From: Gammaproteobacteria bacterium
GTDB lineage: Bacteria > Pseudomonadota > Gammaproteobacteria > JADZEE01
NCBI GenBank assembly: GCA_965225625.1
Contig: CBDDBH010000025.1
Location: 96,152-160,151 of the forward strand
Length of the DNA stretch: 64,000 nt
Direction of reading: 5' to 3'
The translations under genes were made by a program, and so were the position numbers. Positions 3,231 through 46,550 of the stretch are shown here, piece after piece. Below the pieces are notes generated by a model. The model ran no database searches. It had not been told where the DNA came from and saw only the letters and a program-made list of their open reading frames with translations. Positions within the stretch are counted from its first letter, which is position 1, and every line of letters begins with the position of its first letter.

Positions 3231-4418
3231 TTGCCCATGATTGACTATAGCACTGTGCCATATCCCATCCGCCCGGATTTCGCCGCGGCGCATAATCGCT
3301 ACTGGGAGCGCCTGGCCGGACCGGGGAGCTGGCTGACCGGTGCGCAACGCATCGAGGTTGCCCGCGAGGTCAGACACGCGTTCGATTGCGATTTCTGCCA
3401 GCGCCGCAAAGATGCGCTGTCGCCGACCCATGTCGATGGTACCCACGACAAGGTCACCAGCCTTTCCGACACAATGATCGAGATGATCCACCGGGTAGTC
3501 ACCGATTCGGGCCGTCTCACCAAGGCCTGGTTCGACGGCCTCATCGCCCAGGGTCTCAGCGAAGAGGAATACGTCGAGATACTCGGTACCGTCGTCAATC
3601 TCTTCTCCATCGACGAGTTCTGCCGCGCGCTTGCACTACCACCCAATCCATTGCCCGAACCCAAAGCTGGTGAACCCACGGGCTACCGTCCACTGACGCT
3701 GGTCAATGACGGTGCCTGGGTCAAAACGCTGCCGCATACCGTCGACGAAGGGCCGGAGTCCGATCTGTGGCCAGGTAGGACTGGTTACGTCATCCGCGCT
3801 TTGTCGCTAGTGCCGGACGAAGTTCGCTCCATGCTGGATCTGCTGGAGGTACATTACCTCAGCAACGATTACATTTTTAAAGTCAAAGGATCACCCAAGG
3901 GAACGCTAACACGGGTGCAGGCCGAGGTAGTCGCCATTCGAGTATCCGCACTCAATGGCTGTTTCTACTGAACCTCCTCACATGCGGTGATGCTCCGTGA
4001 GAGCGCCACGAGCAACGGAGAGACAGTCAACCTGCAGGGCCTGTCAGATCCGAATTGCAGCAAGCTGGACGATGTACCGTATTCCGAGGCGTTGATCGGT
4101 TTATCCGACGCGTTTCTAAGCCGTGATGCCGAAGCGTTGGCAGCCGCGCGAGATGCCCTGGAGCGCGCGATGGGGGTGGAAGCGATGATCGATGCGGCTG
4201 GGGTCGCCTCGAATTTCCAACGCATGGACCGGATTGCGGACGGCGCCGGGATCCCCTCGGACGCGCCGATGGTGATCATGGGCGAGGATATCATCGAACA
4301 GTTAAAGCTGGACGAATACGTGTCCGCTGGAAATACCCCCAAACTGTCGTGGCTGATGCGCCAGATCATGAAATTCCTGGCAGTGCCCAAGCTGCGCGAG
4401 CGCTTTTCACTCGACTAG
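3231..4418 (+). CDS. AhpD/carboxymuconolactone-decarboxylase-family protein, predicted selenoprotein (TGA at 3969..3971 read as Sec)
   Basis: ORF 3231..3971 ends ...IRVSALNGCFY-TGA. The same frame continues TSSHAVMLRESATSNGET... to 4418. Read through, the site is RVSALNGCFY[U]TSSH, which matches the AhpD/CMD signature RVSxxNGCxYCxxxH with the second Cys replaced by UGA. Confidence 0.7.
3993..4020 (+). promoter_or_regulatory. Candidate bacterial SECIS-like stem-loop just 3' of the in-frame UGA
   Basis: There is a 6-bp perfect stem, ctccgt (3993..3998) paired with acggag (4015..4020), and a G-rich loop. It starts 22 nt after the UGA. An alternative fold is ctcac (3977..3981) with gtgag (3997..4001). 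Confidence 0.35.
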
Positions 4419-33108: not shown

Positions 33109-33429
33109 TTAAGAACGCATTGCCTTTCGAAAAAAGCGTTTAGCAGCGTTAGTATGCTTGCGTTTTTGTACGAGAATCTCAATAAGATTGCCGTCTTGGT
33201 CAACGGCTCGCCAAAGGTAGCGACGCTTTCCTTGTAGTGAGACGACGACTTCGTCGAGAAACCAACGGTCGCCGCGCGGGCCGTGACGTTTGTTAATTCG
33301 ACGAGCGTAATCGGGTCCAAACGTGAGACACGACTGCCGAATGGTTTCGTGCGAAACCGTAACACCGCGTTCCGCTAATAGGTCTTCGACATCGCGAAAG
33401 CTGAGCGTGAAACGATGGTAGAGCCACAA
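33109..33429 (-). pseudogene. IS6-family transposase fragment (N-terminal ~106 aa only)
   Basis: MWLYHRFTLSFRDVEDLLAERGVTVSHETI...LWRAVDQDG matches the IS26/IS6 transposase N-terminal half. The ORF stops prematurely. Confidence 0.75.
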
Positions 33430-33698
33430 CGCCCGTGCGATGATTTCAGGGAGGATCGGAATCCGCGATAATTAGGAGTCTCTGTCATGAGTTAACTGTC
33501 GGCGATCCGGCGGCAACCTGGCAGCCTAGGTTTACAGATGAATATTGAGGAACGACAACGGACAACGGAAATTGCACCGGTCGGTTACCGAGATTCGCAG
33601 ATCGCGCAACGGACGGTGCAGCGTATCGGTAAGGGTAATGGGTTGCTTGCGTTTCAGTGTTCCAGACTCTTGCACCACAGGCTTAAGTGATCCGGGCA

Positions 33699-35024
33699 TC
33701 ACGCGGCAATACTGGTTAGCCCTTTCCAAAGCGGAGCGATCACGACACTCAATTTTGCATGCGCCTGGCTGAGCGCGGCCTCCACCTGCTCCGGGCGTGG
33801 CGCCCGAGCAAAGATGAAACCGAGGTAGCTGGAGCCCTCGGGCAGCGGCACCAGTTGATAATGATCCCGCACCTGTATGGTCACTTCCTCGACATAAGGT
33901 ACCTCGCGGGCCGCACCCACCCCCTCGACCCGTCTGAGGATCCCGGCCTTCGGCGTCGGGATCATCAACACGCCGGCCGCCTCTTGCCAACCTGCAAACA
34001 CCAGCGGGGCGCCCACGGCGTTCGATAACACCAGCCCCTCGAGGCTGCCGGCGAGACCGTATTCGAACAGCCGACTGCACAGCCCACCGATGGTCCGCGA
34101 CGCGATCTCGAGCATCCATACCCCAGCCGCATTGATGCGGCACTCAGCATGTATCGGCCCGTGCCGGAGCCCATAAGCGCGGCAGGTCTCGGCCACCCGC
34201 TGTCGAACCTGGCGCTGCACGCCCGCGTCGAGCCGTGACGGGGTCACGAAGTAGGTCTCTTCAAAATAGGGGCCATTTAGGGGAGCGGGTTTATCAAAGA
34301 CCGCGAGCACGTCGAGTTCCCCGTCGGTCAGCATCGCCTCGACCGCAACCTCGACGCCCGGAATAAATTCTTCCACGAGGAGGTAGTGCCGCTCTTCCGG
34401 GTCGTGGGCTTCGGCAACGATACGGGCCACACGTGCGCAAGCCGCGCGCAGCTCGTCCTCGCTATCCGCCCGGATGACGCCGCGGCTTGCCGACATGGCC
34501 AGGGGCTTGACCACGCACGGGAATTCGATGCCGTCGAGCTGCCCCGCGAGCGGCTTCTCCAGACTAATGCGCGCATGCGAGGGGACCGGGATCCCGGCGG
34601 CACTAAGGTGTGCCCGCGCGAGGTCTTTGCGGCGTGCAATGCGCACGGCATCCGGTTCGTTATGTGGCAAGCCCAATCGGCGTGCGGCGAGTGACGCCAG
34701 CTCGGTCGTGATATCGTCGGTGCCGATAATTGCGGCAAACGATTGGCGACGCGCTTCCTCGACGATGACGTCAACGGCACCGCGGCTGTCGCTGAAGTCG
34801 AGGTGCAATCCTTGCGCGTACGCACTGACCAGCGAATGGTGGCCTTCGGACGCGATCAGGCACTCGATGCCGAGGTGCCGAGCCGCTTCAACGTAAGGGA
34901 CGGTCCGGTAGCTCCCGTGCGGAGCGATGATCAATACGCGTGCTTTGCCCTGTGCCGACGTACGCTGCAGGTCTTCACCGCCGGCAACACGGGTTCGGTT
35001 TCCAGCATCGATCGTTGGAGACAT
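33699..35024 (-). CDS. ATP-grasp domain protein (carboxylate-amine ligase-like)
   Basis: 441 aa with ATP-grasp-type motifs (VVKP..., EEFIPGVE.., ...E.N). Confidence 0.6.
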   Translation of the reverse strand: MSPTIDAGNRTRVAGGEDLQRTSAQGKARVLIIAPHGSYRTVPYVEAARHLGIECLIASEGHHSLVSAYAQGLHLDFSDSRGAVDVIVEEARRQSFAAIIGTDDITTELASLAARRLGLPHNEPDAVRIARRKDLARAHLSAAGIPVPSHARISLEKPLAGQLDGIEFPCVVKPLAMSASRGVIRADSEDELRAACARVARIVAEAHDPEERHYLLVEEFIPGVEVAVEAMLTDGELDVLAVFDKPAPLNGPYFEETYFVTPSRLDAGVQRQVRQRVAETCRAYGLRHGPIHAECRINAAGVWMLEIASRTIGGLCSRLFEYGLAGSLEGLVLSNAVGAPLVFAGWQEAAGVLMIPTPKAGILRRVEGVGAAREVPYVEEVTIQVRDHYQLVPLPEGSSYLGFIFARAPRPEQVEAALSQAHAKLSVVIAPLWKGLTSIAA

Positions 35025-35066
35025 CTAAGCCGTCAACCTTTGCCAGAAGTGGACAGGATGCGGCGT

Positions 35067-35465
35067 CTAGTAGCCGCTGCCGCCACAGCCGCCGCACATG
35101 CCGCTGCCGCCCACACTCTCAAACACATCGTTAAAGACAAAGACCTCATTAAGGCCCTGCTTGGCGTAATCGATTTGGCAGCCCCGCAGGAAGTTGAGGG
35201 CGACGGCATCCACCACCAGTTTGAAGCCCTCACCCTGGAGGACACTGTCGTACTCGGTACGCTCCTCAACATAGGTCATCCCATAGCTGAGGCCATCGCA
35301 TCCGCCACCCTCAACAAAGACACGCAGGGCGGTGAATTCCTTCTCGGCGTCCCGCATGATTTTCGCGAGCTGCGCCTCGCCCGCAGGTGTAATCGTCAAG
35401 TATTGCTCGGTGATGTCCTGCGGATATTCGGATCTCGACTCTTGCGACATTAGCTTGAACCCCAC
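35067..35465 (-). CDS. HesB/IscA/ErpA-family iron-sulfur cluster insertion protein
   Basis: FVEGGGCDGLSYGMTY plus a C-terminal Cys-Gly cluster GSGMCGGCGGSG. Confidence 0.75.
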   Translation of the reverse strand: MGFKLMSQESRSEYPQDITEQYLTITPAGEAQLAKIMRDAEKEFTALRVFVEGGGCDGLSYGMTYVEERTEYDSVLQGEGFKLVVDAVALNFLRGCQIDYAKQGLNEVFVFNDVFESVGGSGMCGGCGGSGY

Positions 35466-35570
35466 TCAATCAACGGTGATAATTCGACAGGATGATACCT
35501 GAGTCTTTATTATAGCTCCTTCGACTTCAACGGCGCATAGGCACCTCACCTACCTCGAAGCTCACTGGCC

Positions 35571-35855
35571 ATGGCACGTACCGTAGATTGCCCGATCCTG
35601 AAGCGCGCAGCCGAGGGACTGGAAGAACCGCCGTACCCCGGCACCTTGGGCAGGCGCATCTATGAGCATATTTCCAAGGAAGGATGGCGGCAGTGGCTGG
35701 AACGGCTCACCATGATCATGAATGAGAATGGGTTGAGCACGGCAGATCCGGACGCAATGCGCCTTATTGAAGAACATATGCGGGGTTTCTTGTTCGGAGA
35801 AGGCGACCTCGGCGGTCTACCGGCGGGGTTCGTCCCCCAGGGCCAGAAGAAGTAA
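35571..35855 (+). CDS. yggX: Fe(II)-trafficking / oxidative-damage protection protein YggX
   Basis: MARTVDCPILKRAAEGLEEPPYPGTLGRRIYEHISKEGWRQW...MIMNENGL aligns with E. coli YggX ([42 protein letters not shown]). Confidence 0.85.
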   Translation: MARTVDCPILKRAAEGLEEPPYPGTLGRRIYEHISKEGWRQWLERLTMIMNENGLSTADPDAMRLIEEHMRGFLFGEGDLGGLPAGFVPQGQKK

Positions 35856-35926
35856 CCAGCACTGCAGCACGATTTCCGCTGTTCCGCCGTCGACATCTCC
35901 ACTCTGGGGCGATAGCGCGTTCGCGA

Positions 35927-37315
35927 TTATAGTTCCGCGAACTGCTCGTCCGTCGGCTCGGCGCAGCAATACCACGGCTCACTCAGCTCCGCCGACGGCG
36001 CGCAGTCCGCCATCGACACGGGCGGCGCCGGCCGATCCAGGTATGCATGCGCAAGTGTCCAGACCTCCCTGAATAACTGTTCGCGCGGCTTGCCTGCGGC
36101 TTGCTGGACGATTCGCTGGATCTCGGCCTGCATTTCGTCCACCTTGGGGTCGGCACTCGACCACCGATATACGAGCGCCGCCTGGTCGAGCGGGCCGACG
36201 TGATCGCAGATCTCCTGCAATTCCAGCAGCCGCGAGCCGGGCGGGATCAAAAGGCGTATGGCAAGCTGCACGGGCGCGACGGCGCCCACCAGTTCGAGTT
36301 CGGTCAACGCCACCAGCAGATCTCGGTAGCCGGCCAGTGTCGTCCACGGCGTAAACGCGACAAACGTCGGCGACAGCTTCAGCCCCAGCTCATCGAAATT
36401 GCGGACCACGTGGTAGAAATCCTCGCGCGTGTGGCCTTTGTCCAGGAGGGTAAGGATCCGATCATCAACCGACTCGACGGCGGTGGTGACGAAAAGACAC
36501 CCTGTGCGTTTTAATATCGGCAGCAGCCTGGCGTGCGCGAGTAGGTGCTCGACCTTGATGGTCACGTCATAGGTCAGCTCCGGAAATTGTTCGTGCAGCG
36601 CCTCGACGATCCGCACGCCATGGGTTGGCCCATTGAAGAAGTCGGGGTCACCGAAGGTAATATGGCGTGCGCCCGCTAGCACTTGTTGGCGCAGGTCAGC
36701 CAGCACGATCGCGCGCGGCACGGCACGAAACCGCCCGTTATACACTGGGACTACCGGACAGTGGCGGCAGCGGTGCTTGCAGCCCCGACTTGCCTCGACG
36801 TAGCCGGTAACGCGAGCCTCGCCGTCGGGCATTCGCAGAAACGCATAACGGTCGAGCGCTGGGAGGTCGCTGCGATCCGGTACCAGAAACCGCTGCCCGA
36901 CTACGGAGATCCGCGGTTCCGGTTGCTCGCCGGTCTCACAAGACACCCCGGATTCGAGCCGATCGGCGAGTGCCTTGAGTCCCGACTCGAATTCACCGCC
37001 CAGTACCGTTCCGACACCGAGTTCGCGAAGGTACGCTTCATTCATCGGCGCATAAAGACCATAGGCGGCGATATGCGTTCGGGGGTTGAGGAGCTTTACA
37101 CGGGGGATCAGCCGGGCGGCCAGCCGGGTCGCCGTATGCATCGGTACATAGAAAGCCGCTAAGTCGGCTTTGCCAACAACGTCTTCGTCCCAGCTCTCGA
37201 CAGCCAGATCCAAGGTCCGTACTGAATCGCCGCGCTCCCGCAACCAAGCCACAGGCTCCGCCAGACCAAAGGGTTGGTGGCCGAGTTCATAGGTGGAAAT
37301 GAGGACGACGTTCAT
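35927..37315 (-). CDS. B12-binding-type radical SAM protein with a C-terminal CCAEP tail (Cys form of the CUAEP/CCAEP-tail radical SAM family)
   Basis: It has CKHRCRHC (CxxxCxxC) and an N-terminal B12-binding-like domain. The extreme C-terminus reads ...SEPWYCCAEPTDEQFAEL. Confidence 0.65.
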   Translation of the reverse strand: MNVVLISTYELGHQPFGLAEPVAWLRERGDSVRTLDLAVESWDEDVVGKADLAAFYVPMHTATRLAARLIPRVKLLNPRTHIAAYGLYAPMNEAYLRELGVGTVLGGEFESGLKALADRLESGVSCETGEQPEPRISVVGQRFLVPDRSDLPALDRYAFLRMPDGEARVTGYVEASRGCKHRCRHCPVVPVYNGRFRAVPRAIVLADLRQQVLAGARHITFGDPDFFNGPTHGVRIVEALHEQFPELTYDVTIKVEHLLAHARLLPILKRTGCLFVTTAVESVDDRILTLLDKGHTREDFYHVVRNFDELGLKLSPTFVAFTPWTTLAGYRDLLVALTELELVGAVAPVQLAIRLLIPPGSRLLELQEICDHVGPLDQAALVYRWSSADPKVDEMQAEIQRIVQQAAGKPREQLFREVWTLAHAYLDRPAPPVSMADCAPSAELSEPWYCCAEPTDEQFAEL

Positions 37316-37685
37316 CCCAACTCAACCTGTCAAATATGGAGCGGCGAATTTTTTTCCGTGGCGGTGCGCACAGATGTCATCATTGGCAAAGCACTCGTCA
37401 CCAAGCTTAAGCACGGCTATGGTCTTGCCGCCCACCTCGACGCATTTGGCCCAACGTCGAAATCGGAAACTTTAGCTACAGAGACAAAATTTGACATGGT
37501 CACTCCAATGCCGAATGCCCACGGGCAACCGATCTCAAGATTTGCACCGATCACAAGCGCTCGGGCTTTGGTTACAAGCATAGATTCTGCAAATCCGAAT
37601 GACAACCGGCGTGATCTCTGACGCTGTCCAGAGGCCGGGATCGTTGAAGGGCGCAAAAACTCTATCTGTGTTGTGTTCATCCACC

Positions 37686-38140
37686 GAGTCGTGTGAAAAA
37701 CTGCTGCTAGAACAATAACAAGCAGGAGTAGACCGTGTTGCAATGGTTTGTCGCCGCGTGTTCAGCGTGTTTTCAATCGAGGACACAACTTATTGCCGAG
37801 AATCTGTGCCTTCGACAGCAGTTGGTTGTTCTCAAACGTCGCCAAAAGCGACCGTTGCTGAACGATTCGGATCGGCGCTTTTGGATCCTAGCGAGTCGAT
37901 GGTTGGTGCGTTGGCGCGCTACGTTAATCGTTGTGCAACCAGAGACAGTATTGAGTTGGCATCGCAAAGGTTGGAAAGCGTTTTGGCGCTGGCGTTCGAG
38001 GCGGGTTGGGGGAGGCTGTGTGTGGCGAATTGCTATTTTGCGCTAGCCAGCCTTTTCCATGGAAGGGTTTTGCAACCGGTTGCATCAAAAACGACTCCTC
38101 ACACTCCTCAAATCTAGAGTTCCCTGCTTTTCCCCTGTTA
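37686..38140 (+). mobile_element. Internally deleted derivative of an rve-type (IS481-like) IS: left end with ~100 codons of transposase fused to the right-end region
   Basis: The left end, cgagtcgtgtgaaaaactgctgc...ttgcaatggtttgtcgccgcgtgttcagcgtgtttt, is shared with 43815... The ORF MLQWFVAACSACF...LRQQLVVLKRRQ is homologous to the N-terminus of the 42650 transposase. The right-end block (38011..38140), with the palindrome ttgcaaccggttgca, also occurs at 45708... Confidence 0.55.
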
Positions 38141-45742: not shown

Positions 45743-46151
45743 CTAGAGCTTGTCCATGGGAAGGAATTTGCAACTGGTTGCAAAAAAGAGGGCTCCTCAG
45801 ACCTTCTTGAACACGGTGTTTAAACGAAACGTTGCACAGCAACATGCCGGCGTTACGGCGCTGCGTTTACGTCTCGTCTGTTGCTGAGCAACACATCGCC
45901 TTCGCCCGGTATGGAGCTTGTCCGTTAAAGTGGCTTTCTAGCCACCAGATCGATCAGCGCAGACATTCCCGAATGACCGAACCCTTCATCGATGCTGTCA
46001 TCGTGACTTTGCAAATGTTCGATATCAAAATCCGAGAACGTCTGCTGGAGAAAATCTTCTGTGTACATGTTATCCCTATCGGGTGGGCCACCAGTGCCAT
46101 ATTCGATTTGCTCCGGGCCGATAACCTTGCAAGACGAATAGTCCACTGGGC

Positions 46152-46550
46152 TTAAGGGCGTTTTGCAGGTTTTCGAATAGCCCCCCCGCGTTGATCTGGC
46201 GCGGCAAATTGAATGAAAATCGCAACGATGGCGTCATATGACCTCGCTGCGAATTCGTGGGTAAAGAGGTCGACTTGTTCGGTCTTGATCTTCACCCCCC
46301 GCTTGGCCGCAAGTTTTTCCGCCTTCTCTAGCGCCACGTCGGAGAAATCCACCGCATGGACGCCGGTACCTAGGCTGGCGAGAAAAGTCCCGTTACGACC
46401 TTCCCCATCGGCAACGGCCAGCACTTTTTGCCCGGCCGAAAACAACGCGGCCTGAGATTTTAGAAAGCTATTTGGCTCGGTTCCAAATAGATAGCCTTCC
46501 TTCCCAAACCGCTTGTTCCAAAAAGTCTGCTCTTGGTTTTCTTGGTTCAT
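46152..46550 (-). CDS. Class I SAM-dependent methyltransferase (small, TehB-like); C-terminus may be truncated
   Basis: VLAVADGEGRNGTFLASLGTGVHAVDFS is a SAM-binding motif I-like segment. Confidence 0.5.
   Translation of the reverse strand: MNQENQEQTFWNKRFGKEGYLFGTEPNSFLKSQAALFSAGQKVLAVADGEGRNGTFLASLGTGVHAVDFSDVALEKAEKLAAKRGVKIKTEQVDLFTHEFAARSYDAIVAIFIQFAAPDQRGGAIRKPAKRP

Follow-up and report, generated by a model that had tools for sequence, protein, structure and literature searches.

A CCAEP-tailed radical SAM enzyme related to ArsL, and its recurrent pairing with an amino-acid-ligase-type ATP-grasp gene

The radical S-adenosylmethionine (SAM) enzyme ArsL moves SAM's 3-amino-3-carboxypropyl (ACP) moiety onto arsenite held by its Cys-rich tail, which binds the substrate and is needed for product formation (10.1101/2024.02.01.577332; 10.64898/2026.04.29.721666). 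In tail-less ArsL, SAM cleavage persists and product formation is lost. A variant whose tail was cut to 'MCCA' is the most active one on methylarsenite (PMC13598754). Another tailed family, curated at NCBIfam as the equivalog 'CUAEP/CCAEP-tail radical SAM (seleno)protein' (NF040546), has been termed 'uncharacterized' and listed with the uncommon selenoproteins bearing a CU motif (bioRxiv 10.1101/2022.07.06.499078); few other selenoprotein families have a dipeptide of Cys and selenocysteine (Sec). Here we analyse a member of this family encoded in a 64,000-nucleotide stretch of a Gammaproteobacteria bacterium (contig CBDDBH010000025.1, positions 96,152 to 160,151), hereafter the window. The gene (35927..37315, minus strand) is an intact open reading frame (ORF) with an ATG start and 462 codons, in the Cys form. 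In itself it is a further, ordinary member of a family already catalogued to which no function has been assigned, and a preliminary description of this DNA had called the substrate of the family unknown, in agreement with the selenoproteome reviews and radical SAM papers, in which we found no characterisation. Our comparisons point to ArsL as its sole close characterised relative, a relation that is new here, and reveal in many, though not all, lineages an operon-like linkage to an ATP-grasp gene of the amino-acid-ligase type.

The assignment to this family, made in the preliminary description from the letters of the sequence, was borne out by a hidden Markov model search, in which the protein scored 610.4 bits against NF040546 (E 2e-183; curated cutoff 500), its residues 3-460 aligning with profile positions 1-467 of 468. 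The CxxxCxxC core is likewise present. The Pfam Radical_SAM model matches at 47.5 bits, and the [4Fe-4S]/SAM motif reads C179-KHR-C183-RH-C186 (CKHRCRHC; codons 36758..36781, minus strand), its three cysteines being invariant in a joint alignment of 69 family members and six ArsL-like proteins. The C-terminal end reads ...SEPWYCCAEPTDEQFAEL, with EPWYCCAEPT at residues 446-455; the codons of the conserved tail S445-EPWYCCAEP-454 occupy 35954..35983 on the minus strand, and both tail cysteines are encoded by TGC, C450 at 35966..35968 and C451, which is Sec in most relatives, at 35963..35965. C450 is invariant, and each of the 69 aligned members has Cys or a UGA stop at position 451. Since C273 is conserved in only 51 of the 69, C450 and C/U451 form the sole universal thiol/selenol pair outside the cluster motif.

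Regarding kinship, the second-best NCBIfam model for the window protein is NF040542 (RCCLKC-tail, now ArsL), with 265.1 bits, below its cutoff of 450, and E 1.3e-78 over residues 4-399; all further families stand at E ~1e-9 or worse. A plasmid collection gave the same picture: one match was an annotated CUAEP/CCAEP protein (Thermomicrobium roseum megaplasmid, 44% identity, Sec form) and the remaining 36 were RCCLKC-tail/ArsL proteins with 29-34% identity over residues 1-399. Of 43 positions conserved at 93% or more in the 69 family members, 30 carry the identical residue in each of the six ArsL-like proteins. The vicinal CC of the family aligns with the CC of ArsL, and the third Cys of ArsL has no counterpart: the window tail is WYCCAEP, with two cysteines, and not RCCLKC, with three As(III)-binding ones. 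The ArsL tail begins directly past the F415-equivalent, whereas in the CUAEP/CCAEP family some 30 residues of variable linker precede SEPWYC[C/U]AEP, so that a strictly conserved two-chalcogen tail sits on a flexible, variable linker. C273 was considered as a stand-in for the third Cys ligand of ArsL and ruled out by its conservation in only 51/69 members. From the 29-34% identity and the 30/43 shared conserved positions we infer that the CUAEP/CCAEP enzyme may cleave SAM in the manner of ArsL.

The CCAEP tail is no chance match. Among the best 120 database homologs, it is found in 102, and 17 stop exactly at ...W[YF]C. A search for distant relatives in 1.84 billion cluster representatives (50% identity clusters) returned 576 relatives at E <=1e-30, a large family spread over many soil and sediment phyla; of the listed representatives, 76 reach 420 aa or more (33-60% identity), and CCAEP is found in 33 of these; 30 stop at W[YF]C, where the Sec codon lies, and the other 13 include several near variants (CCAMP, CCSEP, CCAAP). 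We then assembled 81 genomic loci, to which T. roseum was added to give 82 (L numbers below denote single loci). The codon for the second tail Cys is TGA in 51 of them, TGC or TGT in 27 and was not located in four, and in the TGA forms AEP(T)..Q runs on in frame after the TGA. When the 29 nt from +12 to +40 past this codon were folded, the minimum free energy was at or below -8 kcal/mol in 44/51 TGA forms vs 1/27 Cys forms (medians -10.9 and -4.9 kcal/mol; Mann-Whitney p = 3e-11); the same region of the window copy gives -5.3 kcal/mol and no hairpin. The hairpin covaries, one pair being GC in 18 sequences, AU in 17 and CG in 3, and the observed covariation was reached by 0/500 shuffles. The Sec forms of the family are hence real, and the proposed reading of the tail as a Cys vs Sec alternation holds. 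Loss of the tail from close homologs, which the preliminary description had named as what would overturn it, is not what we see, the tail and the in-frame UGA being conserved. Sec forms were seen in the CUAEP/CCAEP family and in none of the ArsL-like proteins of this analysis.

Two further observations concern these Sec forms. In an alignment of the 42 nt after the UGA in 50 Sec-form loci (A4), the hairpin, which resembles a selenocysteine insertion sequence (SECIS), occurs in two registers, 25 vs 25 sequences, GAGC-AGNUN-GCUC with a 5-nt loop and GACC-AGUU-GGUC with a 4-nt loop, both coding for E/D-Q-(F/L/V). In T. roseum (L082 8935..10371; NC_011961.1, WP_012643191.1), the listed coding sequence stops at ...ESWFC; the codon that comes next is TGA, with AEPLEDPSGPVASQVRMVDQPLR in frame and a GGACCCgucGGGUCC hairpin behind it, and the entry therefore probably records a product cut short at Sec.

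The fold was addressed with an AlphaFold2 model built with a 46-sequence alignment (mean predicted local distance difference test, pLDDT, 92.5; predicted template modelling score 0.90). Linker and tail have a pLDDT of 74-81 and are therefore not predicted to be disordered. No close relative with a solved structure was found, the best sequence match in the Protein Data Bank (PDB) having E 2e-4; by Foldseek the best PDB match is AprD4 (6FD2; E 1.6e-18, TM 0.68), then TsrM, OxsB, MgmA, CysS and MiaB. The N-terminal domain had been described as B12-binding-like, and this has to be revised: the Pfam B12-binding model (PF02310) gives 21.5 bits, below its gathering score of 32.1, and a 2026 review describes the Rossmann-like domain of AprD4 and ArsL homologs as one that does not bind cobalamin (PMC12931638). 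Since these relatives bind no cobalamin, the expression is to be taken as Rossmann-like, and the domain of the window enzyme is predicted to be of this non-B12 type.

Beside the tail, the second strand of evidence is the ATP-grasp gene of the window (33699..35024, minus strand; 441 aa). Its product matches Pfam ATP-grasp_4 (106.6 bits), LAL_C2 (50.7 bits) and ATPgrasp_N, falls below every equivalog cutoff, and has as its closest solved structure BL00235 (3VOT; E 7.6e-26), an L-amino-acid ligase producing Met-Gly and Met-Met, followed by BacD (5e-8). It is predicted to be of the free L-amino-acid ligase type, and the suggestion of a small-molecule locus in the preliminary description stays plausible. 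Neighbourhoods were compared in the 57 loci that reach 2 kb or more beyond the radical SAM gene on each side, genes being called by a crude longest-ORF procedure and adjacency meaning within 1.5 kb; as Acidobacteriota dominate the sample, the locus counts are not phylogenetically independent. A homologous ATP-grasp gene adjoins the radical SAM gene in 35/57 loci, which come from five or more named phyla and show three gene orders; it lies downstream in 32 and upstream in 3, in every case on the same strand, and the median gap is 119 bp. Adjacency was counted in 28/36 Acidobacteriota, 2/2 Gammaproteobacteria, 1/1 Methylomirabilota, 1/1 Latescibacterota and 1/2 Actinomycetota, and also seen on one shorter Nitrospira contig; it shows no association with the tail form (Sec 22/34 vs Cys 11/20). 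YggX is present in 31/57. Of the two neighbours expected to be conserved, the ATP-grasp gene thus proved to be so, and the IscA-like gene did not: it was found in 5/81 loci, and an NfuA-type carrier in 6 partly overlapping those 5, which makes the IscA-like gene a conserved feature of the window's own lineage and not of the family.

Next to the radical SAM and ATP-grasp genes, DUF169 (PF02596) recurs as another partner. It is directly 3' of the radical SAM gene in 9 loci, among them L008, L009, L018, L028, L035, L060 and L066, and was noted also in L020 and L044 and in L138, L150, L151 and L161; neither an NCBIfam model nor a relative in the PDB was found for it, and the literature on it was uninformative. 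A GCS2 carboxylate-amine ligase and an aminotransferase stand either side of the radical SAM gene in Nonomuraea, and an aminotransferase and a major facilitator superfamily transporter flank it in T. roseum, aminotransferase adjacency being restricted to these two; no ATP-grasp orthologue was found on the T. roseum megaplasmid at E <1e-15. Other candidates for a shared partner in lineages without the ATP-grasp neighbour (aldo-keto reductase, arginase, Ldi-like, GFO/IDH/MocA, SIS, secretin and FIST genes) were set aside as lineage-local synteny with no common theme.

The pairing with a ligase is mirrored in the sister family. Six ArsL-like clusters were inspected, and an ATP-grasp gene is present in those of Bacillus cereus, Priestia, Pantoea, Alicyclobacillus and Klebsiella but not in the arsQLM cluster of Pseudomonas amygdali; the encoded proteins have NF002563 and then NF005543 as top NCBIfam models, the same as the window protein, with DdaF and BacD also matched. 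This supports the view that ArsL-type amino-acid products are handed to a ligase. On the plasmids (L084 1139..2667, L165 3330..4858, L166 8286..9777, L167 3118..4668 and L169 7284..8773), a short gene coding for some 90-100 aa precedes each of these ATP-grasp genes; of its products, that of Bacillus (AhpD/CMD-like) and that of Pantoea were compared, and their last residues are ...TSTCC and ...SSSCC. These clusters hint that peptide-bound arsinothricin-type amino acids may exist, together with a small CC-tailed carrier.

On this basis we favour, with a probability of roughly 0.4, the reading that the CUAEP/CCAEP protein is an ArsL-like enzyme in which a Cys-Cys or Cys-Sec arm offers up a soft substrate, the resulting amino acid then being ligated by the ATP-grasp enzyme. 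SAM would be cleaved ArsL-style into methylthioadenosine (MTA) and an ACP species, while the arm would chelate a soft two-coordinate substrate and swing it into the active site. The ACP group would then be joined to an atom X on the arm, X being not arsenite and perhaps a chalcogen, a persulfide-type sulfur or a thiophilic metalloid, and the product would be a methionine- or homocysteine-like 2-amino-4-X-butanoate, which the co-transcribed ligase would couple to a further amino acid to give a dipeptide. YggX and an IscA/NfuA carrier would keep the oxygen-labile cluster loaded in mostly aerobic hosts. Arsenic as X is disfavoured by the gene context, and a chalcogen (persulfide or selenosulfide) is a speculation prompted only by the Fe-S and sulfur-trafficking neighbours and by the capacity of Sec as nucleophile and leaving group. 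Rather doubtful is the wider proposal that the family makes up a second, far more widespread class of ArsL-like, non-canonical radical SAM ACP-transferases, in which the arm would carry a chalcogen or thiophilic atom, the product would be a homocysteine-like or new heteroatom amino acid, and the ligase would turn it into a dipeptide. Such a dipeptide could serve as a low-molecular-weight thiol or in metal handling, and in Acidobacteriota, Methylomirabilota, Nitrospirota and some Proteobacteria it would be bound up with Fe-S homeostasis (YggX, IscA/NfuA).

Several points weigh against the favoured reading. The literature holds no biochemistry for any CUAEP/CCAEP member, an identity of ~30% to ArsL does not fix which C-S bond of SAM breaks, and no published determinants separate ACP from 5'-deoxyadenosyl (5'-dAdo) chemistry in ArsL. 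The tail offers two chalcogen ligands vs three in ArsL, and C273, with its 51/69, does not make up the number. Moreover, Sec in selenoproteins is mostly a redox residue, which favours a redox role of the tail. Regarding the ligase, adjacency is 0/7 in Chloroflexota and 0/3 in Alphaproteobacteria, the ATP-grasp enzymes of ArsL clusters are only 24-26% identical to that of the window, and the co-occurrence is looser in the reverse direction: in a sample anchored on the ATP-grasp (80 metagenome loci found with an ATP-grasp alignment), a CUAEP gene lies within 5 kb in only 20/58 loci with enough upstream sequence, and the closest homologs of the window ATP-grasp (50-61% identity) are mostly in yggX-iscA-ATP-grasp trios without a radical SAM gene, L085 and L107 being exceptions. 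Finally, besides the ars genes treated below, no conserved transporter or regulator indicating a substrate emerged from the 82 loci.

The alternative that survives best, although we hold it unlikely, is a canonical 5'-dAdo enzyme in which the Cys-Cys or Cys-Sec pair would be a redox arm, supplying a product radical with a hydrogen atom or with electrons under (seleno)disulfide cycling, in analogy with the GCUG tail of thioredoxin reductase and the cysteines at the C-terminus of ribonucleotide reductase. A 5'-dAdo radical is what almost every PF04055 enzyme generates, and the top structural hit, AprD4, is a radical SAM dehydratase of the canonical kind. The context in Acidobacteriota hints at redox or oxidative stress as well: a divergent aconitase gene adjoins in 27 loci, with haloacid dehalogenase (HAD), glucose-6-phosphate dehydrogenase and glucokinase genes downstream, the order (L013, L014, L022, L032, L053, L064 and others) being aconitase (divergent), radical SAM, ATP-grasp, yggX, HAD, glucose-6-phosphate dehydrogenase, glucokinase. 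In Escherichia coli, acnA, zwf and yggX are SoxRS-regulon genes, and by analogy the arrangement suggests an oxidative-stress theme. In addition, an alternation of Cys and Sec is typical for redox-active residues of prokaryotic selenoproteins (PMC13188914). However, ArsL is the closest sequence family by some 70 orders of magnitude in E-value and is no canonical enzyme, the CC is aligned with the substrate-binding CC of ArsL, and across 81 loci no partner reductase or thioredoxin is conserved near the radical SAM gene.

A more doubtful alternative places the neighbours in Fe-S housekeeping: YggX, an IscA/NfuA carrier and the ATP-grasp enzyme would form a module of their own, which Fe-S clients (the CUAEP enzyme, MoaA, aconitase, other radical SAM enzymes) merely adjoin, the ligase not using the radical SAM product. 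As the preliminary description had stated from the sequence, the window holds, next to the ATP-grasp gene, a gene for an A-type Fe-S carrier (IscA/HesB-like; 35067..35465, minus strand; 132 aa from a GTG, or 127 aa from 35450 in the public gene call; TIGR00049 75.8 bits, cutoff 58.8; Pfam Fe-S_biosyn) and, on the opposite strand between it and the radical SAM gene, a divergent yggX for Fe(II) trafficking and oxidative-damage protection (35571..35855, plus strand; 94 aa; NF003817 104.2 bits, cutoff 74; Pfam Iron_traffic). In the ATP-grasp-anchored sample, the gene immediately upstream of the ATP-grasp usually encodes an IscA-like (~20) or NfuA-like (10) carrier, and YggX is found in 26/65 loci. 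From these carriers, the low CUAEP count and the trios, it follows that the ATP-grasp is linked to Fe-S carriers at least as tightly as to the CUAEP enzyme. Fe-S clients do recur: besides the divergent aconitase, moaA, the gene for GTP 3',8-cyclase, is found in 5 loci, near the radical SAM gene in L038, L045 and L075 and after the ATP-grasp gene in the closest genome, a gammaproteobacterial metagenome-assembled genome (L002; 87% protein identity), where it is intact (383 bits) at the site at which the window keeps a 5'-end remnant (33532..33702, minus strand; ~25 codons left; TIGR02666 positions 1-25, E 8.5e-9). Against a mere adjoining, five or more named phyla show the radical SAM and ATP-grasp genes in this order, on a shared strand and with short gaps, also in loci without an intervening carrier gene, and the sister ArsL-like clusters independently pair with an ATP-grasp gene in an arsenic context devoid of Fe-S genes.

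The trios of yggX, an iscA-like and an ATP-grasp gene without a CUAEP gene come from sediment and marine contigs (L086-L104, e.g. L086 4103..6221). Five of these contigs have nearby a radical SAM gene of the AmmeMemoRadiSam type (TIGR04337-like; 215 bits, cutoff 220), and four a Nudix gene.

Far less probable is that the enzyme is an ArsL orthologue producing arsinothricin-type organoarsenicals. ArsL is the nearest characterised family and a CC-only tail is enough for methylarsenite in engineered ArsL (PMC13598754), but the protein scores 265 bits on NF040542 where 450 are required and its tail lacks RCCLKC. A tblastn search with 16 ars-cluster proteins against the 82 and 80 loci and the window turned up next to nothing and returned, for the 82 related loci and the window, zero matches to ArsC, Acr3, ArsB, ArsH, ArsN and ArsQ; one ArsM-like and one ArsR-like match were obtained in the 82 loci and none in the window.

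Slighter still are the chances of a locus for a ribosomally synthesized and post-translationally modified peptide (RiPP), in which the radical SAM and ATP-grasp enzymes would act on a ribosomal precursor. Radical SAM and ATP-grasp pairs are known from some RiPP clusters, and a short gap upstream of the radical SAM gene could have housed a precursor, in keeping with the 'peptide modification' wording of the preliminary description. This wording was not upheld. The interval 37316..37700 contains directly upstream a frameshifted, truncated remnant of a Rieske [2Fe-2S] ferredoxin gene (37327..37500, minus strand), recognised in a frame-repaired translation by Pfam Rieske at 22.9 bits (cutoff 20.3; profile positions 2-48 of 88), no precursor peptide was seen there, and its opposite-strand ORFs have no family match. 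Across 81 loci no small ORF between or near the genes is conserved, the small inter-gene ORFs did not cluster, there is no conserved peptidase or exporter, and the ATP-grasp enzyme, with its LAL_C2 domain, resembles ligases of free L-amino acids. A cobalamin-dependent (class B) radical SAM methyltransferase, to which the weak Pfam B12-binding match and the structural matches to TsrM, OxsB, MgmA and CysS might point, is hardly credible given the subthreshold PF02310 score and the reports of AprD4, the top fold match, and ArsL homologs as non-cobalamin proteins (PMC12931638).

In the window the genes form a four-gene cassette, delimited as one blastn segment of 84% DNA identity with L002 (window 37362..33558 against L002 9953..13703, i.e. 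a block at 33558..37362), to which the DNA homology of the two genomes is confined. GC content is 60-66% within the cassette vs 50-55% in the flanks. One side is bounded by a fragment of an IS6/IS240-family transposase gene (33109..33429, minus strand; Pfam DDE_Tnp_IS240 64.2 bits, profile positions 2-53 of 139), next to the moaA remnant, and beyond the Rieske remnant an ORF looks like a transposase N-terminus (37735..38046, plus strand; no Pfam match). The cassette thus lies in a decayed, mosaic region. Its sole plausible promoter-like site stands before yggX, and a search for Rfam elements including riboswitches near the cassette gave no match. Past an rve-family integrase gene, some 9 kb away from the radical SAM gene, is a gene for a TehB-like SAM-dependent methyltransferase of the tellurite-resistance type (45923..46546, minus strand; L001 770..1393), which is not conserved in other loci. 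The selenoprotein of AhpD type that the preliminary description had predicted is present (3231..4418, plus strand; motif CFY-U-T), with its in-frame TGA at 3969..3971 and, with U read as C, 449 bits on NF041238 ('AhpD_rel_CFYUT'; cutoff 175); its distance is about 32 kb and not the 34 kb given. With this gene in the window, the host appears to decode Sec, yet its own CUAEP-family enzyme uses Cys.

What is new here is the kinship with ArsL, the counts of ATP-grasp and YggX adjacency, the lineage-specific IscA, and an ATP-grasp family often found with IscA/NfuA and YggX without the CUAEP enzyme. The useful output lies at the family level: the sisterhood with ArsL, a ligase pairing mirrored in ArsL clusters, an Fe-S helper context, and a lack of precursor peptide and arsenic genes. 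Two of these results make the family testable, namely its kinship with an enzyme that cuts SAM at the 'wrong' bond and its habitual pairing with a free-amino-acid ligase, and a Cys-form gene such as the window copy can be expressed in E. coli without Sec machinery. The question is thereby raised whether nature holds a second ACP-transferring radical SAM enzyme, and which heteroatom it alkylates.

Compared with known systems, the window protein shares with the NF040546 family its full length, the CxxxCxxC core and the C-terminal [ED]xW[YF]C[C/U]AEP tail; it differs in having Cys (TGC) and no SECIS-like hairpin, though its host encodes at least one selenoprotein, and otherwise in nothing substantial. 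AprD4, a radical SAM 1,2-diol dehydratase, resembles it in the Rossmann-like domain, the radical SAM barrel and the lack of cobalamin binding, but is only 18% identical, has no Cys/Sec tail, and carries out canonical 5'-dAdo chemistry on an aminoglycoside. C-terminal CC or CU arms occur elsewhere, as the GCUG of thioredoxin reductase and the CC of MerA, where a flexible pair shuttles between solvent and a buried active site; with the window tail this is an analogy only, folds and chemistry being unrelated. BL00235, BacD and DdaF, which join two free amino acids, often one of them a non-proteinogenic 'warhead', share with the window ligase the ATP-grasp_4 and LAL_C2 architecture, and unlike them it is habitually linked to IscA/NfuA and YggX genes. 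From ArsL itself the family departs by a two-chalcogen instead of a three-chalcogen tail, the extra ~30-residue linker, the WYC[C/U]AEP motif, and Fe-S carriers and YggX nearby in place of genes for arsenic resistance, transport, methylation or acetylation. Yet the two have in common a catalytic core alignable at 29-34% identity with 30 of 43 family-conserved positions, a Rossmann-like N-terminal domain predicted to be free of B12, a vicinal Cys-Cys on a C-terminal tail, and the frequent company of an ATP-grasp ligase gene.

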